Source: an uncultured Candidatus Saccharibacteria bacterium | GTDB lineage: Bacteria > Patescibacteriota > Minisyncoccia > Phycocordibacterales > CAIZLB01 | DNA: 64,000 nucleotides | Assembly: GCA_964550955.1 (NCBI GenBank) | Contig: CAZKAF010000001.1 | Coordinates: forward strand, 174,728-238,727 | Direction: 5' to 3' | Part shown: positions 18,870-38,194 of the stretch, in pieces | How the letters are laid out: every line of letters starts with the position of its first letter | Numbering within the stretch: the first letter of the stretch is position 1 | Translations under genes and position numbers: made by a program | The notes under the pieces: generated by a model | Told to the model about the DNA's origin: nothing | The model's database searches: none | What the model saw: the letters and a program-made list of their open reading frames with translations, nothing else

Positions 18870-18960
18870 GGTTCCGGCAGTTTTTTCGGCAAATCGAGTA
18901 TTGGTGTATAATTGCTAGGCAATATTAGCAATATTCTTGGGTAATACTTCAGCAATAATC

Positions 18961-20988
18961 ATGGCATCACAAGAGGAAATAAAAGAGGTGCGCCTCGAAA
19001 AGCTAAAAAAGCTCGAGTCGCTCGGCATCGAAGCGTATCCTGTTTCTGTCCGCAAGGATTATGACATGGAAAGCTTGAGGGAGAAGTTCGACTCCCTTGC
19101 GCAGGAGCAGGGCAGCGAAGGGCAGCAAGACGGGCGAAAACAGGAGATTGCCGTTGTCGGCAGGATCATGTCCATGCGTGGCCAGGGCGCCCTGATTTTC
19201 TCCGATCTTTTTGACGGCACGGGCACGTTTCAGATAATTCTCAAGAAGGACCAGGCTCCCGCGTATATTCGAAGTTCCCAAAAAGGGGAATCCGTTTCGG
19301 GCATCGAGGAGACCGTCCCTCATCCTCAAGTCGATGACGCGTTCGAGCTGTTCAAGGAAACGGCTGACATCGGGGACTTTGTCGAAGCGAGGGGAAGCCT
19401 CATGAGAACCGCGAGAGGGGAAATGAGCCTCCTTGTTTCGTCCTGGAGAATTATCGCGAAATCGCTTCGGCCCCTTCCGGAAAAATGGCACGGCCTTCAG
19501 GACGTCGAGGAGCGATACAGGAAAAGATATCTCGACGTGCTCACCAATCAGCCTGTCCGGGATTCGTTTGTCCTCCGAACCAGGCTGCTTTCAGCGGTAC
19601 GCGAATTTTACGATTCCCATGGATATCTCGAGGTCGAGCTTCCCATTCTCCAGGCGCTCGCCGGCGGCGCCACGGCCGCAGTTTTCAATACGCATCACAA
19701 CGCCCTCGGCCTCGATTTCAACCTTACCATCGCTCAGGAGCTATACTTGAAAAAGCTCATAGTCGGAGGGTTCAACAAGGTCTATGAAGTGGGTAGGAGG
19801 TTCAGGAACGAGGGGATCGACACGACTCATAATCCTGAATTTACCATGCTCGAATCCCAGGAAGCATATGCCGATGCCAAGTCGCAGCGGCAGTTCATAC
19901 AGGACCTCATGCAGTCTCTGGTGCGAAAGCTGTTCGGCAAGGACTCTTTCGAATACGAGGGGCAGGTCATAGACACCTCGAAGCCTTTCGAGGTCCGGGA
20001 ATACCTGGACGTCATTGCGGAATCGGCGGGCATAGCTGACGTTCGGTCCAAGTCCCGCGACGAGCTCGTGGCCGTGGCTCATGGATTCGGAGCTGAGATA
20101 GAGCCTTCGGACGAATTTGAGAAGATTATAGACAAGATTTACAAAAAAGCAGTCCGGCCGAAGCTCATCCAGCCGATTTTTCTCATAAACTATCCCGTAG
20201 AATTCAATCCTTTCGCCAAAAGAAGGGAAGACGACAGGACGCTTATCGACCGGTTCCAGCTCGTGGCAGGCGGGCTTGAAGTGACGAATTGCTTCTCCGA
20301 ATTGAACAATCCAGTCGATCAGAAAGAGCGGTACGAAGAGCAGGACCGAAAGAAGAGGCAGGGCGACGGGGAGATTTCCCCGAGCGATCAGGATTACCTG
20401 GAAGCCATGGAATACGGCATGCCCCCGAACGGCGGCATCGGCATCGGCATCGACCGCCTCGCCATGCTTTTCATGAATTCCGGCAATATCAAGGATGCCA
20501 TCCTGTTTCCTACGATGAAGCCGGAAAATCCGGCAGGTGGCAGCGGAGCAGGTTCTCAAAGGAAAAAGGAGGGCGAAGTGGCGGTCATCGTCTTGAATGA
20601 ATCCGCGAATCTGCTCGGGTGGCAAAAAATGAACACGGTCGCGCATCTGAGCGCCTCATTTGCCGGATCGGCCGGAAGGAAGCTCTTCATGCAGGAGAAG
20701 ATTCAGACTGCCGACGCCAAGGACATAAAGCTCAATATTCAGCACGCCATCATGATAAAGGAGCTTGGCACGAGCGCAGCGCTGAAAGAGGTCAGGGAAC
20801 GGGCCGAAGCGGCCGATCTTTCCATTGCGGAATTTACCAGAGAGATGATCGAGACTACGAACGACAAGAAAGTCATCGCCCAGACAAAGGAAAAAGACTT
20901 TGATGAAATAGAGTATCTCGGCATATTGGTATTCGGTCCAAAAAGCGCCGTCGAGAAAATCACGGAAGGCGCCGTTCTGGCCGGATAA
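18961..20988 (+). CDS. lysS: lysyl-tRNA synthetase (class II) with ~150-aa C-terminal extension of unknown function
   Basis: OB-fold N-terminus, motif 2 FRNEGIDTTHNPEFTMLE, and motif 3 GGIGIGIDRLAML. The ATG at 18961 (MASQEE…) is preferred; the ORF-track start at 18937 is a TTG. The core ends at about 20530, and the extension starts EVAVIVLNESANLLGWQKMNTVAHL. Confidence 0.85.
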   Translation: MASQEEIKEVRLEKLKKLESLGIEAYPVSVRKDYDMESLREKFDSLAQEQGSEGQQDGRKQEIAVVGRIMSMRGQGALIFSDLFDGTGTFQIILKKDQAPAYIRSSQKGESVSGIEETVPHPQVDDAFELFKETADIGDFVEARGSLMRTARGEMSLLVSSWRIIAKSLRPLPEKWHGLQDVEERYRKRYLDVLTNQPVRDSFVLRTRLLSAVREFYDSHGYLEVELPILQALAGGATAAVFNTHHNALGLDFNLTIAQELYLKKLIVGGFNKVYEVGRRFRNEGIDTTHNPEFTMLESQEAYADAKSQRQFIQDLMQSLVRKLFGKDSFEYEGQVIDTSKPFEVREYLDVIAESAGIADVRSKSRDELVAVAHGFGAEIEPSDEFEKIIDKIYKKAVRPKLIQPIFLINYPVEFNPFAKRREDDRTLIDRFQLVAGGLEVTNCFSELNNPVDQKERYEEQDRKKRQGDGEISPSDQDYLEAMEYGMPPNGGIGIGIDRLAMLFMNSGNIKDAILFPTMKPENPAGGSGAGSQRKKEGEVAVIVLNESANLLGWQKMNTVAHLSASFAGSAGRKLFMQEKIQTADAKDIKLNIQHAIMIKELGTSAALKEVRERAEAADLSIAEFTREMIETTNDKKVIAQTKEKDFDEIEYLGILVFGPKSAVEKITEGAVLAG

Positions 20989-21063
20989 CGGGCTTAGGCG
21001 AGGCTCTGGCAAAAAAGCTCAAGAGAGTTCCTGCCGGTTAGGCCAACGCTCGAGATTTTATAT

Positions 21064-21106
21064 GAAAAAAAGCCACCCCGCGAGAGGTGGCCTTTGCTTG
21101 AGTTTT
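21064..21106. terminator. bidirectional intrinsic terminator between convergent lysS (+) and lipoprotein gene (-)
   Basis: AAAAAAA-GCCACC-ccgcgaga-GGTGGC-CTTTGCTTGAGTTTT, with A/T runs on both sides of the hairpin. Confidence 0.6.
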
Positions 21107-21174
21107 GCAGCCGGGGCTGCGGAAGGGGGATCCTCCAGGTTTTCCTGGTCGGAAATCCGAACAGGCTTTCGGAA

Positions 21175-21552
21175 CTAGTCCTGCCACCTGAATACCTTGG
21201 CTCGGGGAACCGGCTCGAAGATGCGCGCTCCGGGTACCGGATGCCTGATAATCTGGACGATCGCGCCTCTCTTGACGGTAACATCGTCGCCCTTTTGAAG
21301 GAACGGCGAATAGTTGCCGAGAACTTTCACCTCGGTCGTCGTTGCGGGGAAAGGCCCTGCGTGGCTTATCAGGTGAATGCGCGTGATCCAGAAGGGAAGG
21401 AACGTGTGCGTCTCCGGCCTTGACTCGACCGTGTACGTTACCGGGAAGGTGCTGTACGGGAAGAAAAGATGCAGGCGACCGTAATCGATGCATCCGACGA
21501 TGAGGAGGACGATCAGGGCGAGCTTAACAAGCTTGAGAAAGAATTTCTTCAT
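21175..21552 (-). CDS. hypothetical lipoprotein
   Basis: 125 aa. N-terminus MKKFFLKLVKLALIVLLIVGC carries a lipobox (IVGC). Confidence 0.5.
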   Translation of the reverse strand: MKKFFLKLVKLALIVLLIVGCIDYGRLHLFFPYSTFPVTYTVESRPETHTFLPFWITRIHLISHAGPFPATTTEVKVLGNYSPFLQKGDDVTVKRGAIVQIIRHPVPGARIFEPVPRAKVFRWQD

Positions 21553-21598
21553 GGCATGATTCGAATCTATTGGTCTGGGTTTCTGATTTTCTGACTTC

Positions 21599-21631
21599 CG
21601 CGCGACATGGTGCCGCGCGCACGGTTTTTTG
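21599..21631 (+). terminator. terminator-like hairpin (CGCGCG…CGCGCG + TTTTTT) upstream of the mraZ control region
   Basis: 6-bp GC stem followed by a T6 run. No obvious upstream gene on the + strand, so the function is uncertain. Confidence 0.3.
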
Positions 21632-21744
21632 ACTGAATGAACTTTGACGAGCTCCGTAGCTGTCTATCTTTAGCTTTGGCCGGTGACAATGTACGCCAAC
21701 GGCCGATTTTCGTCAACAAAATTCATCAAAGTTATCCACCTTGG

Positions 21745-21811
21745 AGTGGATATTTATGTTTGCAAATGTACATGAAGTGGAATAGAATGGTATCTAAGTG
21801 GGATGAAGTGG
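21745..21811 (+). promoter_or_regulatory. putative MraZ operator: direct (A/G)AGTGG-type repeats with 10-bp periodicity
   Basis: AGTGG occurs at 21745, 21776, 21797 and 21807, and AATGG at 21786 (GAAGTGGAAT AGAATGGTAT CTAAGTGGGAT GAAGTGGTAT). This lies about 220 nt upstream of mraZ. Confidence 0.45.
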
Positions 21812-22030
21812 TATATCTGACAACTTGCCGAAGATTCTAAAAAAGCTTGTAAAATAAGCATAAAATAGAAATCAAGGTTCTCCTCGTCAGGTATCCAAGG
21901 AAAGTGAGTTTAAGAACCGAAGCCCGCTGCCAATCTGGCTTCGGTTCCCATACGGACGAAAGTCACCCGATTCAAATCAAAGCTTCTGAAAAACCCACTG
22001 CTTTGGATCGGAGAAAAAAGAGACACTCAT

Positions 22031-33817: not shown

Positions 33818-36800
33818 ATGAAAGCCTTTTTCTCGTATCCGGTAAGAAACTTCGCGGCTCTCTGTCTGACGCTCGGTCTCATTCTCGCCCCCAACGCATC
33901 TCTTCTTGCTCAGGTAGGCGACAGCAGTCTCACGTTCCTTCAGCGCCTCAGATGCGCATTCAACCCCGTGCTTCTGGTGGTTCCTTTGCCCGGCTATTGT
34001 TACCGGGTTGATATTGCGGATGACACTTCGGCTGCCGCTTCGACGTCGGAGTCGGAAACGTCGGCTCTTGCAAGCATCCTGCAACCAAGGGGCATGGCGG
34101 CGCCTGCGGCTCATGTTCCCTCCAGCGCGGAAATTCCTGCTGCGACGACGCGAGCTGAAGGCATTTCCTCTTCAGGGCAGCGGCCTGTATACGTCACGAA
34201 TACTCTGTATCGAACCGATCCGGACGCGGTAACTCGCCAGCAATTGGAGCAAAGGCTCCAGCTGTTCAAGAATACGCTTCCCGTGACGGTTACGGCTACA
34301 GGCTATTCAGCCCCGACTTACGCTTCTTATTCATGGACCAATCCGCCGCCAAACATGGCATCCGCGGAGTATGTCAATTCAAGGGTGTCCGAGAGTTTCT
34401 CTTCCCTGGCGCTTCGCATCGATGACATTGAGCAGAATCAGCAGGGCACATCCAGCCCTTCGCAGTGGGCTGACGGAATCGCGGGCATTTCATATACGGG
34501 AGGGAATGTCGGAATCGGCACTACCACCCCTCCGTTCACCCTGACCGTAGCAATGCCGAGCGGGGAGCAGGCGTTCTTTGTCACTTCGAGCGGAGCTGCG
34601 GGAAATAGCACCGCAAATCCTCTTGATGCTACCGGCGTCGGCCTTACGCCGAGGAGGTTTTCATGGGAGGTTCCTGGGGCGGGATCTGGCTGGGGTGCAC
34701 GTTTCTCGAATGCCGGCACAGGAAATTTTAAGAACGTTCTCTTCCTTTCTGCCGCATCAACTTCTACATTCAGTTATATCCTGAGTGCTGAAAGCGGCGG
34801 CGTCAGCAGGTTCATCGTGAAGGCAAACGGCAGAGTCGGCATCAATACGGCCGCCCCGTCGAGCATGCTCGATATCAGGGCGATGAATGGGGATACTGAC
34901 CTTTTTTCTGTCACATCTTTTAATAATAATCCGTCTCTCGTTGTAAGGAATACCGGCTTGGTCGGAATCGGAACCGGCAATCCAGACGCAAGGCTTCATG
35001 TTTTGTCTGCAGCCACGAACGCTGCCACGCTTGTTGCCCAGGCCACTACTTCCCAGGCAGCATCCGTCCTTGATGTTCGGGATTCCACGGGAATCTCACT
35101 TCTCAACGTGCTGCCGGGAGGTAATGTCGGCATGGGCACCGCTTCGCCGAACCATCTCTTGGAGGTTTCCCATGCGGGCACGGCCGACTTCCTGGGCGTA
35201 GGGGCTTTCTTTGCGCCGAACAACACTACGGCCGGATACGCGACGCAGCTTAAGTTTGGCGTGAGCAATACGATGGGCAACAGCGCGGAATGGCGATACG
35301 TTCATCAGGGAAGCGACAACAACGCAAACCGGATTGACTTTGGATTCAACGGATACGCATCTCCTGTGCTTTCGTATAACAAGGCCGGCAATGTAGGTAT
35401 CGGCACCACAACACCAGCACAAAAACTTTCAGTCGCTGGCGGTATGCGACTCACTGGAGCGTTCTTCGACGGTGCAAATACGAGCGGCACAGCGGGCATG
35501 GTTTTGCAAACTACAGGCACTGGCACGCAATGGGTGGCCACTTCGTCATTGGGCATCTCCGGCGGCGAGTCGTCGCAATGGACAACCTCCGGATCTGACA
35601 TTTATTATGATGCAGGAAAGGTGGCGGTAGGGACGACTACGGCCTGGGATGACTTTACCGTCAGCTTGAATGGCGGAAAGAGAATGTCCATGGGTGCCGA
35701 CTCGAACAATTATCTCGCATGGGGGTTCACGAGCGGCGGCTACAGTTCAGTTCCAAGTTATGCCAATGCGGGCGGTACTGGCAATAGGACATCGCTCATT
35801 ACGGTATCCGGAACACTTACTCTTGCGGTTGGAGCACCTTCACGATTGGTAAACGGAGATATTTCGGCAAACGCTGCTTATTTTACAAACAATGAATCTG
35901 TGGCAGGCAAGTATCTTGTGTTCGACTTCGGCGTGGATGCGTCGAAAGTTATCACTGAAGCAAGATTTTACCAGAACCCTGCCATTTCTCAAGGAACGTT
36001 CAATTGGCAAGGGTCGAATGACGGCAACACCTGGACAGATATTGGCTCAAGCTTTGTTCTTGGTGGAAATACGGTGCAAACCATTACGACTCTTTCGGAA
36101 AATACTACAGGCTATCGATATTATCGAATCCTTGGATTGTCCGGGACGACGAATTGGAATTCCTACATACATCAGTTTGAGTTTCAGATTGATGATTTTC
36201 AAACAGCAACCTATGCCTCTGGGCAAACATATTCAATTGATGGTGTTTCGGCTGCCGGTACTGTTGCGCTTCAGTCGTCTGGCGGCAGCGTGGGAATTGG
36301 TACCGTGTCCGCATTGTCCAAGCTCGATGTTAACGGAAATGTATCCATCGGATCATATGCTGGAACAATAGCGGCGCCAGTAAACGGCTTGATTGTGAGC
36401 GGCAACGTGGGTATTGGCACTACGACTCCTGCCAGCAAGCTTTCGGTTGCCGGAAGCGCATTTATCGGCGGCGATTTGGTCGCAACAGGCAGCATCACCT
36501 TCGGCAATTTTAATATGAATGCTGTGGCAACGTGCGGTCAGCAATACCATACCTTTATCGGCTCCATCGGAGACGTCGGCGGCGATCAGTGCGCGGCCCT
36601 GAACGTGACTCAGCAGGATACGAACGGAAATGTTATTTACCGCTTCGGCGGAGTCGGCCAAGCATGGGCTGGTGAATTTTATGCCAACAGCTCTCTGGTT
36701 GGAATGAACACTAAGGGTGGCATCCCCCTCAGCTTTCAGATCGGCCAGACTGAGGCGATGAGGGTTGCGACAAACGGCAACGTGGGCATAGGAACGACGA

Positions 36801-38194
36801 CTCCAGCCTACAAGCTTGATGTCAACGGCGACATCGGCCGTTCCGGCGGCGACTTGGTGATGTACGCCGGCGTGAAAGACAATTCAAGCCTTTGGTTTAG
36901 AACTGGAACGAGCGCGAACTATACGGACGAATTTGTCATAAATGGAGCTGCAAATACCATTTCCCTTGGCGGCAATGATTTGCTGCTTTCTTCAGGAAGG
37001 ATAGGCATTGGCACCACCACGCCAGCGAGCAAACTCCACGTCTTCTCTGGCGAGGCTGGTCCGGTTGTCGCGACCACTACGGCAAGCCTGGTACTCGAGA
37101 GCGCTTCGAGCAATTTCCTTCAGTTCATGAATCCTGGAGCCGCCGCCTCCGGTGTGTTCTTCGGCCACGGCAATAGCGGCGGCACGTACCGCGACGGCGC
37201 AATCCTCTATAACTACGTCGGCCCCTCGAACAGCTTGGCCTTTTACGCGGACGGCGTCGATCCGCGCATGATTATCACGGGCACGGGCAACGTGGGAATC
37301 GGCACCACGACTCCTACCGAAAAGCTCGATGTGGTTGGAGGCATACGAGCATCGAGTCCTTCAGGGAACATCGGCGTATCCGTGCATTATTCCGGGTCTG
37401 GAGGAAGGGAATATCAGTTCTTGTCATGTTCGAATTGCGGCACTGCCAGCCTCGGCGGCCTTGAGGTGTATGACCGCAATGCCAGTGCGGGACGCGCATA
37501 TATCGCGGCGGGAGTGAACGGCTGGCAGACGCCATCCGACCGACGCCTCAAGAAAGATATCGAGACGCTGAGCGTTCTCGACAGGCTTGGCGAAGTTCGG
37601 GGCGCAACGTATGTCTTGCGCGATTCGGACATCAAGCAAATCGGCGTCATCGCTCAGGAAATCAGGGACGCGTTCCCTGAAGCGGTGTCAGGAGAGGAAA
37701 TAGAAGGGCGCTTCCTCGGAGTTTCATATGATGCCATCGCGACTATTGCGCTTCAGGGCGTCAAGGAAATCGCCGATCTTTCAAGCGCCTTCAAGAATCG
37801 TCTGATCGGTTGGTTTGCTGACGCCTCAAACGGAATTGGCAAATTGTTTGTCGGCGAAGTTCGTACCGAAAAGCTATGCGTAGGCGATACGTGCGTCACT
37901 GAAGCCCAGCTCCAGGCGCTCCTTCTCAATGCGAGCCTTTCTCAGGCTCAAGCGTCAGGAGGATCAAGCGCGCCAGCTGCTGAATCAGGCGCTCAAAATG
38001 ACAAGAACGACGCGGGCAAGGAAAAGCCGAAAGATGCGGCCGACAATGCGCCGGCAGCCGGCGGGAAGCCGGATGATTCAGCGCCCGCTGACAAAATTAA
38101 AGATGCCGCCGTCATTTCTCCGCCGGCTGATCCCGTGATTTCAGAAGCCGGGCTCTCGTTGCCGACGACGCCCGAAGCTCCAGTTGAAAATTAG
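33818..38194 (+). CDS. giant secreted fibre/adhesin-like protein (1458 aa) with tail-fibre-type repeats, discoidin-like segment and C-proximal intramolecular-chaperone (peptidase S74-like) domain
   Basis: Signal peptide MKAFFS…LLAQ. At least 10 copies of G(N)VGIGTTTPxxKLxV. Segment KYLVFDFG…FNWQGSNDGNTWTDI…YRYYRILG resembles F5/8 type C. PSDRRLKKDIETLS…GVIAQEIRDAFPEAV…VSYDAIATIALQGVKEI matches the tail-fibre/endosialidase chaperone domain. An Ala/Pro/Asp/Lys-rich tail follows. Confidence 0.8.
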   Translation: MKAFFSYPVRNFAALCLTLGLILAPNASLLAQVGDSSLTFLQRLRCAFNPVLLVVPLPGYCYRVDIADDTSAAASTSESETSALASILQPRGMAAPAAHVPSSAEIPAATTRAEGISSSGQRPVYVTNTLYRTDPDAVTRQQLEQRLQLFKNTLPVTVTATGYSAPTYASYSWTNPPPNMASAEYVNSRVSESFSSLALRIDDIEQNQQGTSSPSQWADGIAGISYTGGNVGIGTTTPPFTLTVAMPSGEQAFFVTSSGAAGNSTANPLDATGVGLTPRRFSWEVPGAGSGWGARFSNAGTGNFKNVLFLSAASTSTFSYILSAESGGVSRFIVKANGRVGINTAAPSSMLDIRAMNGDTDLFSVTSFNNNPSLVVRNTGLVGIGTGNPDARLHVLSAATNAATLVAQATTSQAASVLDVRDSTGISLLNVLPGGNVGMGTASPNHLLEVSHAGTADFLGVGAFFAPNNTTAGYATQLKFGVSNTMGNSAEWRYVHQGSDNNANRIDFGFNGYASPVLSYNKAGNVGIGTTTPAQKLSVAGGMRLTGAFFDGANTSGTAGMVLQTTGTGTQWVATSSLGISGGESSQWTTSGSDIYYDAGKVAVGTTTAWDDFTVSLNGGKRMSMGADSNNYLAWGFTSGGYSSVPSYANAGGTGNRTSLITVSGTLTLAVGAPSRLVNGDISANAAYFTNNESVAGKYLVFDFGVDASKVITEARFYQNPAISQGTFNWQGSNDGNTWTDIGSSFVLGGNTVQTITTLSENTTGYRYYRILGLSGTTNWNSYIHQFEFQIDDFQTATYASGQTYSIDGVSAAGTVALQSSGGSVGIGTVSALSKLDVNGNVSIGSYAGTIAAPVNGLIVSGNVGIGTTTPASKLSVAGSAFIGGDLVATGSITFGNFNMNAVATCGQQYHTFIGSIGDVGGDQCAALNVTQQDTNGNVIYRFGGVGQAWAGEFYANSSLVGMNTKGGIPLSFQIGQTEAMRVATNGNVGIGTTTPAYKLDVNGDIGRSGGDLVMYAGVKDNSSLWFRTGTSANYTDEFVINGAANTISLGGNDLLLSSGRIGIGTTTPASKLHVFSGEAGPVVATTTASLVLESASSNFLQFMNPGAAASGVFFGHGNSGGTYRDGAILYNYVGPSNSLAFYADGVDPRMIITGTGNVGIGTTTPTEKLDVVGGIRASSPSGNIGVSVHYSGSGGREYQFLSCSNCGTASLGGLEVYDRNASAGRAYIAAGVNGWQTPSDRRLKKDIETLSVLDRLGEVRGATYVLRDSDIKQIGVIAQEIRDAFPEAVSGEEIEGRFLGVSYDAIATIALQGVKEIADLSSAFKNRLIGWFADASNGIGKLFVGEVRTEKLCVGDTCVTEAQLQALLLNASLSQAQASGGSSAPAAESGAQNDKNDAGKEKPKDAADNAPAAGGKPDDSAPADKIKDAAVISPPADPVISEAGLSLPTTPEAPVEN

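Follow-up and report, generated by a model that had tools for sequence, protein, structure and literature searches.

A lysyl-tRNA synthetase with a C-terminal DUF2000 domain of Pth2-like fold in a Candidatus Saccharibacteria bacterium, a fusion common to CPR bacteria and DPANN archaea

Among the folds established for the editing of aminoacyl-tRNA are AlaX and B3/4, and class II lysyl-tRNA synthetases (LysRSs) have been described as using pre-transfer editing; to our knowledge no post-transfer editing domain or activity is known for any LysRS. The present work concerns a LysRS of an uncultured Candidatus Saccharibacteria bacterium in which the synthetase is followed, on the same polypeptide, by a DUF2000 domain. 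The gene, lysS, lies in a stretch of 64,000 nt of contig CAZKAF010000001.1 (assembly GCA_964550955.1, positions 174,728 to 238,727), hereafter the window, to which all coordinates refer. What comes closest in print is a remark on another add-on, the B2 domain of PheRS carried by the LysRS of Microgenomates (PMC5370408). In the literature that we searched no paper mentions DUF2000, the terms Atu0240, PF09391 and 2GAX gave irrelevant matches only, and nothing was found on a Pth2-like domain on LysRS or on a LysRS-DUF2000 fusion. The architecture is visible in the databases, where NCBI labels these proteins either "lysine--tRNA ligase" or "DUF2000 family protein".

Here the identity, predicted fold, conservation and distribution of the C-terminal domain are described, and its possible role is weighed. 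With a probability of roughly 0.45 we read the domain as a tethered hydrolase that would act on the acylated CCA end of the tRNA-Lys held by the synthetase, in proofreading or in rescue. What is established on structure and phylogeny is solid and would come as a surprise to a specialist in aminoacyl-tRNA synthetases (aaRSs); it is from them that we infer the function.

Gene layout and fold of the C-terminal domain

The open reading frame (ORF) is unbroken from 18937 to 20988 on the plus strand and encodes 683 aa from a TTG at 18937 or 675 aa from an ATG at 18961. Residue numbers such as W554 follow the 675-aa product, while Pfam spans are given in the numbering of the 683-aa ORF; model confidence is expressed as predicted local distance difference test (pLDDT) and predicted template-modelling (pTM) scores. 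The features of the gene are as follows.

18961..20988, plus strand: lysS-DUF2000 fusion gene, 675 aa (NCBIfam lysine--tRNA ligase, 561 bits)
19150..19296, plus strand: OB-fold anticodon-binding domain (Pfam tRNA_anti-codon, PF01336; E 1.4e-10, 41 bits, two stretches)
19504..20526, plus strand: class II catalytic core, ending ...AILFPTMKPE at aa 522 (PF00152 tRNA-synt_2, 258 bits)
20527..20574, plus strand: Gly/Ser/Lys-rich linker NPAGGSGAGSQRKKEG, 16 residues, aa 523-538 (pLDDT below 50 at 526-536)
20575..20985, plus strand: DUF2000 domain of Pth2-like alpha/beta fold, 137 aa, aa 539-675 (PF09391, AlphaFold2, Foldseek)
20620..20649, plus strand: motif 1, WQKMNTVAHL, at the N-terminus of helix 1 (W554, N558 and H562 invariant; aligns with Pth2 GK18xAAQ22xxH25)
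20731..20760, plus strand: motif 2, LNIQHAIMIK (L591, N592 and A596 invariant; at the position of Pth2 GQxK)
20833..20874, plus strand: motif 3, FTREMIETTNDKKV (F625, M629 and D635 invariant; R627, E628 and T632 conserved in at least 96%)
20986-20988, plus strand: stop codon TAA

The extension is a member of DUF2000 by the Pfam threshold and has the fold of 2GAX. PF09391 (DUF2000) matched residues 550-681 at E 2.4e-20, with 73.2 bits where the cutoff is 25 and with all but the ends of the profile (positions 4-131 of 133) aligned; the tail alone scored 76.3 bits, and no NCBIfam model matched it. The sole solved relative by sequence was Atu0240 (2GAX), found at E 0.001 with the single sequence and at E 8.7e-8 with a profile (2gax_A). 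An AlphaFold2 model of the domain, built from 42 aligned domains, was confident (pLDDT 91.9, pTM 0.83) and has the topology strand, long helix, hairpin, strand, helix, strand, two short helices, strand, helix. When this model was compared with the PDB by Foldseek the top match was again 2GAX (E 8.6e-12, TM 0.77/0.80, 139 aligned columns). All remaining significant matches were Pth2 peptidyl-tRNA hydrolases, archaeal and human, i.e., six proteins in twelve chains (3ERJ, 2ZV3, 1WN2, 1Q7S/Bit1, 1XTY and 1RLK) with E-values of 3e-5 to 3e-4, probability 1.00 and target-normalised TM scores of 0.63-0.73; beyond 2GAX and Pth2 nothing in the PDB fell below E 0.5.

The remainder of the protein is a complete, bona fide class II LysRS, composed of an OB anticodon domain and a class IIb core. 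Two NCBIfam LysRS models exceeded their cutoffs over residues 13-530, PRK00484 (NF001756) with 561.1 bits (cutoff 468) and TIGR00499 with 501.7 (cutoff 427.6), and the match to PF00152 spans residues 190-527. The full-length model (pLDDT 88.1, pTM 0.72) places the beta strands of the OB fold at 63-113 and shows two confident bodies, with only the linker between them (residues 526-536) below 50. Linkers of homologues measure 10-27 aa; Gly, Ser, Lys and Glu abound in them, and their sequence is not conserved. The linker is modelled as a flexible, disordered tether between the LysRS body and the DUF2000 domain. Within the LysRS part, an acidic, Gln-rich N-terminal loop at residues of about 53-59 (window 19100-19140) has a pLDDT below 50, and an insertion at residues of about 96-125 (window 19220-19330) splits the Pfam match to the OB fold in two.

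An earlier note on this gene, made by a model from the sequence alone, agrees well with this layout. It had placed the end of the LysRS core at about residue 525 and the start of the extension at 20530, a few residues away from the mapped boundary at aa 522 and nt 20526, and its class II assignment is upheld by the two NCBIfam models. The Gly/Ser linker with a domain of about 150 aa which it described proved to be the 16-residue linker and the 137-aa domain, the motifs that it quoted (VIVLN and WQKMNTVAHL) are both present in the extension, and the resemblance to DUF2000 that it had suggested is borne out by PF09391 as well as by the sequence and fold of 2GAX.

Conservation was assessed over 74 fused domains. 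Thirteen residues were invariant in this set (W554, N558, H562, L563, D585, L591, N592, A596, F625, M629, D635, G654 and G659) and six more were conserved in at least 93% of the domains (T559, R627, E628, T632, T633 and K637). Across the whole DUF2000 family only the Asn and one C-terminal Thr are invariant, with the His kept in at least 90%. In the 74 fused proteins, whose loci were picked by conserved motifs so that the domain values are biased upward, the identity between domains plateaus near 53% as that between LysRS cores drops from 64% to 34%, and at 86% core identity the domains are just 67% identical. Such a plateau, which holds at all distances between cores, indicates frozen positions rather than transfer; roughly half of the positions of the domain are thus frozen, the remainder being free to vary, and transfer of the domain between LysRS lineages is not needed to account for domains that are better conserved than their cores. 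The invariant constellation is polar and aromatic (W, N, H, D, N, E, D) and is not made of Lys or Arg. It is under strong purifying selection, in a pattern that looks enzyme-like.

With regard to the start of the gene, the 675-aa product from ATG is 100% identical to a public protein (P0037) whose start was called at 18961, and the NCBIfam alignment starts at residue 13-14; both favour the ATG at 18961. Upstream of lysS (18870-18960) a T-run behind a GC-rich stretch resembles a terminator of greA, and an extended -10-like sequence, TGTATAAT, lies at about 18905-18912. This latter element is a consensus match only; it would put the TTG at 18937 very near the start of transcription, which again favours the ATG.

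Distribution of the fusion and its further architectures

The distribution of the domain was addressed by scanning one genome per GTDB species, and close relatives of the domain turned up in at least 144 species; the best 80 loci were examined. The domain shares a single ORF with a class II LysRS core in 76 of these. In the other four (L031, L056, L067 and L072, from Gracilibacteria and Peribacteria) the two parts are in the same frame, broken only by UGA at a conserved Gly, which is consistent with genetic code 25 and means that ORF calling with table 11 splits these genes artificially. The in-frame LysRS-DUF2000 fusion is therefore present at 80/80 examined loci. A separate ORF, a frameshift or an artefact of the assembly, which the earlier note had named as outcomes that would refute it, are ruled out by the continuous frame, by the identical public 675-aa product and by these 80 fused loci. 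The extension is a real, selected part of the protein, with homologues and a confidently modelled fold.

The hosts of the fusion include many groups of the candidate phyla radiation (CPR) and DPANN archaea (Woesearchaeota, Nanoarchaeota and Aenigmarchaeum). The archaeal origin of three loci is backed by their neighbours, which encode an archaeal-type ProRS, a Methyltrn_RNA_2 methyltransferase (PF04013, a family which we take to be mainly archaeal) and a Rad51/RadB-like protein. Word-indexed searches additionally returned dozens of LysRS-DUF2000 proteins labelled Patescibacteria, Pacebacteria, Taylorbacteria or Nanoarchaeia. The earlier note's statement that a C-terminal domain of this kind is not standard on bacterial LysRS thus holds for cultured bacteria, and fails for the CPR and DPANN, where the arrangement is common. 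As CPR bacteria and DPANN archaea are unrelated, genome-reduced episymbionts, a fusion common to both implies either gene transfer between domains of life or strong convergence.

The family as a whole is small. A hidden Markov model (HMM) search of 1.84 billion representative proteins gave only 370 clusters at E up to 1e-3; the top scores belong to LysRS fusions, and lower down come free-standing proteins of 135-145 aa. Free-standing homologues, the existence of which the earlier note had asked about, are therefore at hand, and the closest subfamily of these (P0187-like), found in Saccharimonadales, Colwellbacteria, Babeliales and Nitrosopolaris, retains both WQ..N...H and REMIETTDD.

Some of the fused proteins carry a further domain, and the extended CPR and DPANN proteins reach about 1000 aa. 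The order LysRS-DUF2000-AlaXM is seen in L049 (2483-5125), P0177 and P0424 (the last of 1002 aa, from Gracilibacteria), with an NCBIfam AlaXM score of 149 bits and with the zinc-site motifs HxxxH and CxxxH intact. The order LysRS-B3/4-DUF2000 occurs in P0203 (906 aa), where the B3/4 domain of PheRS-beta sits between the core and DUF2000. A tail of the HD (HDIG) type follows DUF2000 in five proteins (L025, L042, L060, P0157 and P0158); for this tail the next model in the NCBIfam ranking is an archaeal tRNA methyltransferase fusion, matched in its C-terminal part. That AlaX, B3/4 and HD domains have repeatedly been stacked on LysRS points to tRNA-Lys as a hotspot of such control in these organisms. 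LysRS was the sole fusion partner seen for DUF2000 with the exception of two proteins, P0257, which is discussed below, and P0032, a metagenomic sequence of 238 aa in which a MutL-like HATPase N-terminus, a 73%-identical piece of DUF2000 and the BRCT tail of a DNA ligase are joined, and which is probably an assembly chimera.

Putative activity at the tRNA-Lys 3' end and its alternatives

In the mechanism that we favour, the synthetase body would hold tRNA-Lys through its OB anticodon domain and its catalytic core while the tethered domain captures the acylated CCA-3' end in a conserved pocket. This pocket would be made of the start of helix 1 (W554, Q555, N558 and H562), the NIQH loop and the REM..T..D segment, and the unwanted ester captured in it would be hydrolysed. 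The ester could be a non-cognate amino acid on tRNA-Lys, and the reaction would then amount to post-transfer proofreading; an N-blocked or peptidyl-Lys-tRNA-Lys is the other possibility, and here hydrolysis would let the tRNA be reused and charged anew in place. Both the ligand, i.e., the 3' end of tRNA-Lys, and the catalytic activity of the domain are putative elements of this scheme. The disordered and variable Gly/Ser/Lys tether fits the need of a domain that has to swing to the end of a bound tRNA, and the repeated co-fusion with AlaX and B3/4 is the strongest circumstantial pointer to DUF2000 working at the tRNA 3' end. The confidently modelled Pth2 fold, the almost exclusive pairing with LysRS and the enzyme-like conservation also speak for the scheme. 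The earlier note had listed trans-editing, tRNA binding and regulation as possible roles of the extension; the Pth2 fold together with the sister architectures that contain editing domains narrows these options, on which the function would still be putative. Diacetyl-Lys-tRNA-Lys is the classical substrate of Pth. For the rescue option a precedent is provided by E. coli, where suppressors of a temperature-sensitive Pth mutant overproduce tRNA-Lys, as related, together with doubts on how this is to be interpreted, in the part of PMC9973355 that cites Heurgue-Hamard 1996.

A number of observations weigh against the proposed hydrolase, the first of which come from the comparison with Pth2 itself. 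PF01981 (PTH2) was absent from the Pfam matches even at E up to 1. Pth2 sequences were drawn from a PDB search (five solved proteins), aligned, and compared as a profile with the DUF2000 alignment by hhalign, which gave a weak and colinear match (E 2e-4, probability 46%, 107 columns). In this match, which for its part speaks in favour of the hydrolase, the invariant His of Pth2 (AAQVAHAA) is aligned with the invariant H562 of MNTVAHLSA, and the C-terminal ITGxLKL of Pth2 with LTKxxxL of DUF2000, a C-terminal Thr being common to both. The position of K18 (S. solfataricus numbering), which is invariant in the five solved Pth2 and reportedly catalytic in the S. solfataricus enzyme, is taken by Q555, and is Gln or Glu across the fused subfamily. 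The segment with D86 and T90 of Pth2 falls into a gap of the hhalign match and is not alignable by sequence, DUF2000 having two extra short helices; E628...T632 come after the equivalent strand, i/i+4 apart like D86...T90, and may correspond to them. With the catalytic Lys replaced by Gln, the D86/T90 segment unalignable and no match to PTH2, the hydrolase chemistry is only putative. The domain belongs to DUF2000, with a fold like that of Pth2 and a putative active site that has been remodelled, and by sequence it is not a member of the Pth2 family.

The change of the catalytic Lys to Gln or Glu also speaks for a different and rather unlikely explanation, in which the domain is a non-catalytic accessory module, a Pth2-derived fold without hydrolase activity that would serve for binding only and would tune the efficiency or localisation of LysRS. 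Such a module might bind the 3' end of the tRNA, a partner in the channelling of Lys-tRNA, such as EF-Tu or the ribosome, or the host cell of the episymbiont. Appended tRNA-binding domains are common on aaRSs, as exemplified by the B2-type OB domain of PheRS on some CPR LysRSs (PMC5370408). General RNA-binding add-ons are, however, basic and poorly conserved, whereas the DUF2000 domain is acidic and its polar residues of the buried-pocket type (W, N, H, N, E, D) have stayed the same across very deep divergence; moreover, pure binding does not account for the recurrent presence of genuine hydrolytic editing domains in the same fusions.

The pattern of losses in close relatives is a further point on the side of such a module and a further difficulty for the hydrolase. 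In a neighbour-joining tree of LysRS cores, the clade of the window protein contains six pairs of fused and unfused sisters, i.e., the domain is dispensable in six close relatives. Three unfused lineages were inspected (loci L001, L085/L086 and L087). The synteny greA-lysS-mraZ is kept in L001, L085 and L086, and L087, a short contig that ends just past lysS, shows greA-lysS only. No remnant of DUF2000 was detected in any of these four loci by tblastn at E up to 50, and the idea that the domain had split off as a downstream gene in the unfused relatives was rejected on this basis. The DNA homology of the unfused loci to the window ends at about 20525, exactly at the boundary of core and linker, and resumes only at about 21729 in L001, L085 and L086. 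No residue of the LysRS core systematically separates fused from unfused members of the clade, and there is thus no compensating change. This clean absence in close relatives, uncompensated in the core, shows that the domain is accessory, frequently lost, and dispensable in close relatives.

The sequence between the end of the core and about 300 nt upstream of mraZ (window 20527-21728) is thus an indel with respect to the close relatives, and in L001 the equivalent gap instead contains a gene for a PemK-family toxin, so that the lysS-mraZ spacer looks like a variable hotspot. In the window this spacer holds an ORF of 125 aa on the minus strand (21175-21552) with a hydrophobic, lipobox-like N-terminus (MKKFFLKLVKLALIVLLIVGC...) and no Pfam match, and the GC content falls to 0.43 at 21500-22000.

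Charge is another point against a tRNA hydrolase. The fused domains have a median isoelectric point (pI) of 6.25, that of the window is at 5.13 and the free-standing DUF2000 proteins have a median of 6.06, as compared to basic values of 8.8-9.5 in four out of five Pth2 enzymes. A neutral to acidic domain argues against autonomous binding of tRNA and leaves room for a ligand other than tRNA. The acidic charge is compatible with a module acting in cis that borrows the tRNA affinity of the synthetase, and is harder to reconcile with free-standing members that would act on tRNA. The neighbourhoods of free-standing DUF2000 genes that were examined have no conserved context and are unrelated to translation, and P0257, a protein of 568 aa which joins a fatty-acid desaturase to a DUF2000 domain of the classical type (110 bits), fits poorly with a role of the family on tRNA only. 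Even the co-occurrence of AlaX and B3/4 can be turned around, as classical editing may already be covered in these proteins and DUF2000 would then have another role.

These observations leave some room for a hydrolase or sensor of small molecules tied to LysRS chemistry and not to tRNA, an explanation which we regard as improbable. The domain would then hydrolyse, for instance, misactivated aminoacyl-adenylates or diadenosine tetraphosphate (Ap4A), or it would regulate the enzyme by binding lysine or a metabolite of the lysine pathway. LysRS is a major source of Ap4A, and both the acidic to neutral charge of fused and free-standing members, unlike that of the tRNA-binding Pth2, and the desaturase fusion P0257 would suit it. 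So would the HD phosphohydrolase domain downstream of DUF2000 in some fusions; on the other side, the next-best match of this tail is again linked to tRNA. In locus L082 (3094-4426) a free-standing DUF2000 gene (P0305) overlaps by 20 nt the 3' end of dapF, which encodes the diaminopimelate epimerase of the lysine pathway; this adjacency would point in the same direction, but it is a single case that was not seen in the other neighbourhoods examined, which differ. Furthermore, the sole resembling folds with an assigned function are those of tRNA-ester hydrolases, and the AlaXM and B3/4 domains that occur in the same fusions have aminoacyl-tRNA and not nucleotides as their substrate.

The gene order of the window, mreB-mreC-PBP2-greA-lysS-mraZ-rsmH-ftsL-ftsI, places lysS among cell-envelope genes. 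This location would accord with a transferase similar to LysX, which would depend on Lys-tRNA-Lys and hand the lysine on to some acceptor, be it a lipid, a precursor of the cell wall or something else. There is also the precedent of a LysRS fused to a consumer of its own product, the NCBIfam LysX model matching the core region. We consider such a transferase highly improbable. The same synteny is found in relatives that lack the domain, so that the neighbourhood is uninformative about it; the protein lacks both a membrane segment and an MprF domain; and the LysX model (NF002821) reaches 456.3 bits against a cutoff of 742, matching with its LysRS part only (model positions 619-1101). We know of no transferase with a Pth2 fold. 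A search for Pth1 and Pth2 found neither in the 64-kb window or the fetched loci, which is uninformative, the window covering only 64 kb of a 696-kb contig and the E. coli Pth query being approximate. Elsewhere in the window, at 33818-38194 on the plus strand, a protein of 1458 aa is encoded whose sole Pfam match, near residue 1240-1290, is Peptidase_S74, the intramolecular chaperone of the endosialidase and tail-fibre type; it may be a large surface protein or a phage-derived fibre protein.

Returning to the tethered hydrolase, a wider proposition would be that DUF2000 is an active and so far unrecognised class of tRNA-ester hydrolases with a Pth2 fold, that on LysRS it would be the first domain for post-transfer quality control or rescue, acting in cis, that its spread over CPR and DPANN would be an adaptation of ultra-small symbionts, and that the free-standing proteins of about 140 aa would be its counterparts in trans. 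This we put forward tentatively and with some doubt. Were ester hydrolysis on tRNA-Lys to be true, it would add a new fold to the few modules for proofreading or recycling of aminoacyl-tRNA, give a first function to an orphan family whose structure (2GAX) was deposited in 2006, and reveal a need for quality control in translation that is specific to CPR bacteria and DPANN archaea. If the domain were non-catalytic, it would still be a widespread and strongly constrained add-on whose role needs explaining.

Comparison with known systems

The closest solved relative, Atu0240 (2GAX), shares with the window domain the W-Q-x-x-N of helix 1, the EEM/REM segment and the C-terminal LTK..L. It differs in being a free-standing protein of 135 aa with no assigned function, and it lacks both the His of helix 1 (AFL in place of AHL) and NIQH, which are invariant in the LysRS-fused subfamily. 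The window domain falls in this distinct and far more constrained subfamily of DUF2000. With respect to Pth2, including PTRH2 (Bit1), the alpha/beta fold is the same, and in the weak hhalign match the His of helix 1 and the C-terminal Thr appear to be kept. DUF2000 has a beta-hairpin in place of helix 2 of Pth2 and two short helices inserted after strand 5, and the domain studied here is acidic and fused to an aaRS where Pth2 is basic and free.

LysRS has served as a platform for an appended domain that handles tRNA-Lys in other systems, i.e., in the mycobacterial LysX, an MprF-LysRS fusion, and in the Microgenomates proteins with a B2-type OB add-on (PMC5370408 for B2). These differ from the LysRS-DUF2000 fusion in the nature and position of the added part, which in LysX is an N-terminal, membrane-bound MprF domain and in the B2 add-on an OB fold. 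The editing domains of aaRSs, namely the tRNA_SAD domain of AlaRS and AlaX, B3/4 of PheRS-beta, INS and YbaK in the case of ProRS, N2 of ThrRS, and DTD, have the same design as the protein described here, in that a domain of hydrolase fold is tethered to a synthetase that holds the tRNA. The fold of DUF2000 is unrelated to every established one of these and its own editing role is putative, yet in some relatives it adjoins one of them, AlaXM or B3/4, on the same LysRS polypeptide.

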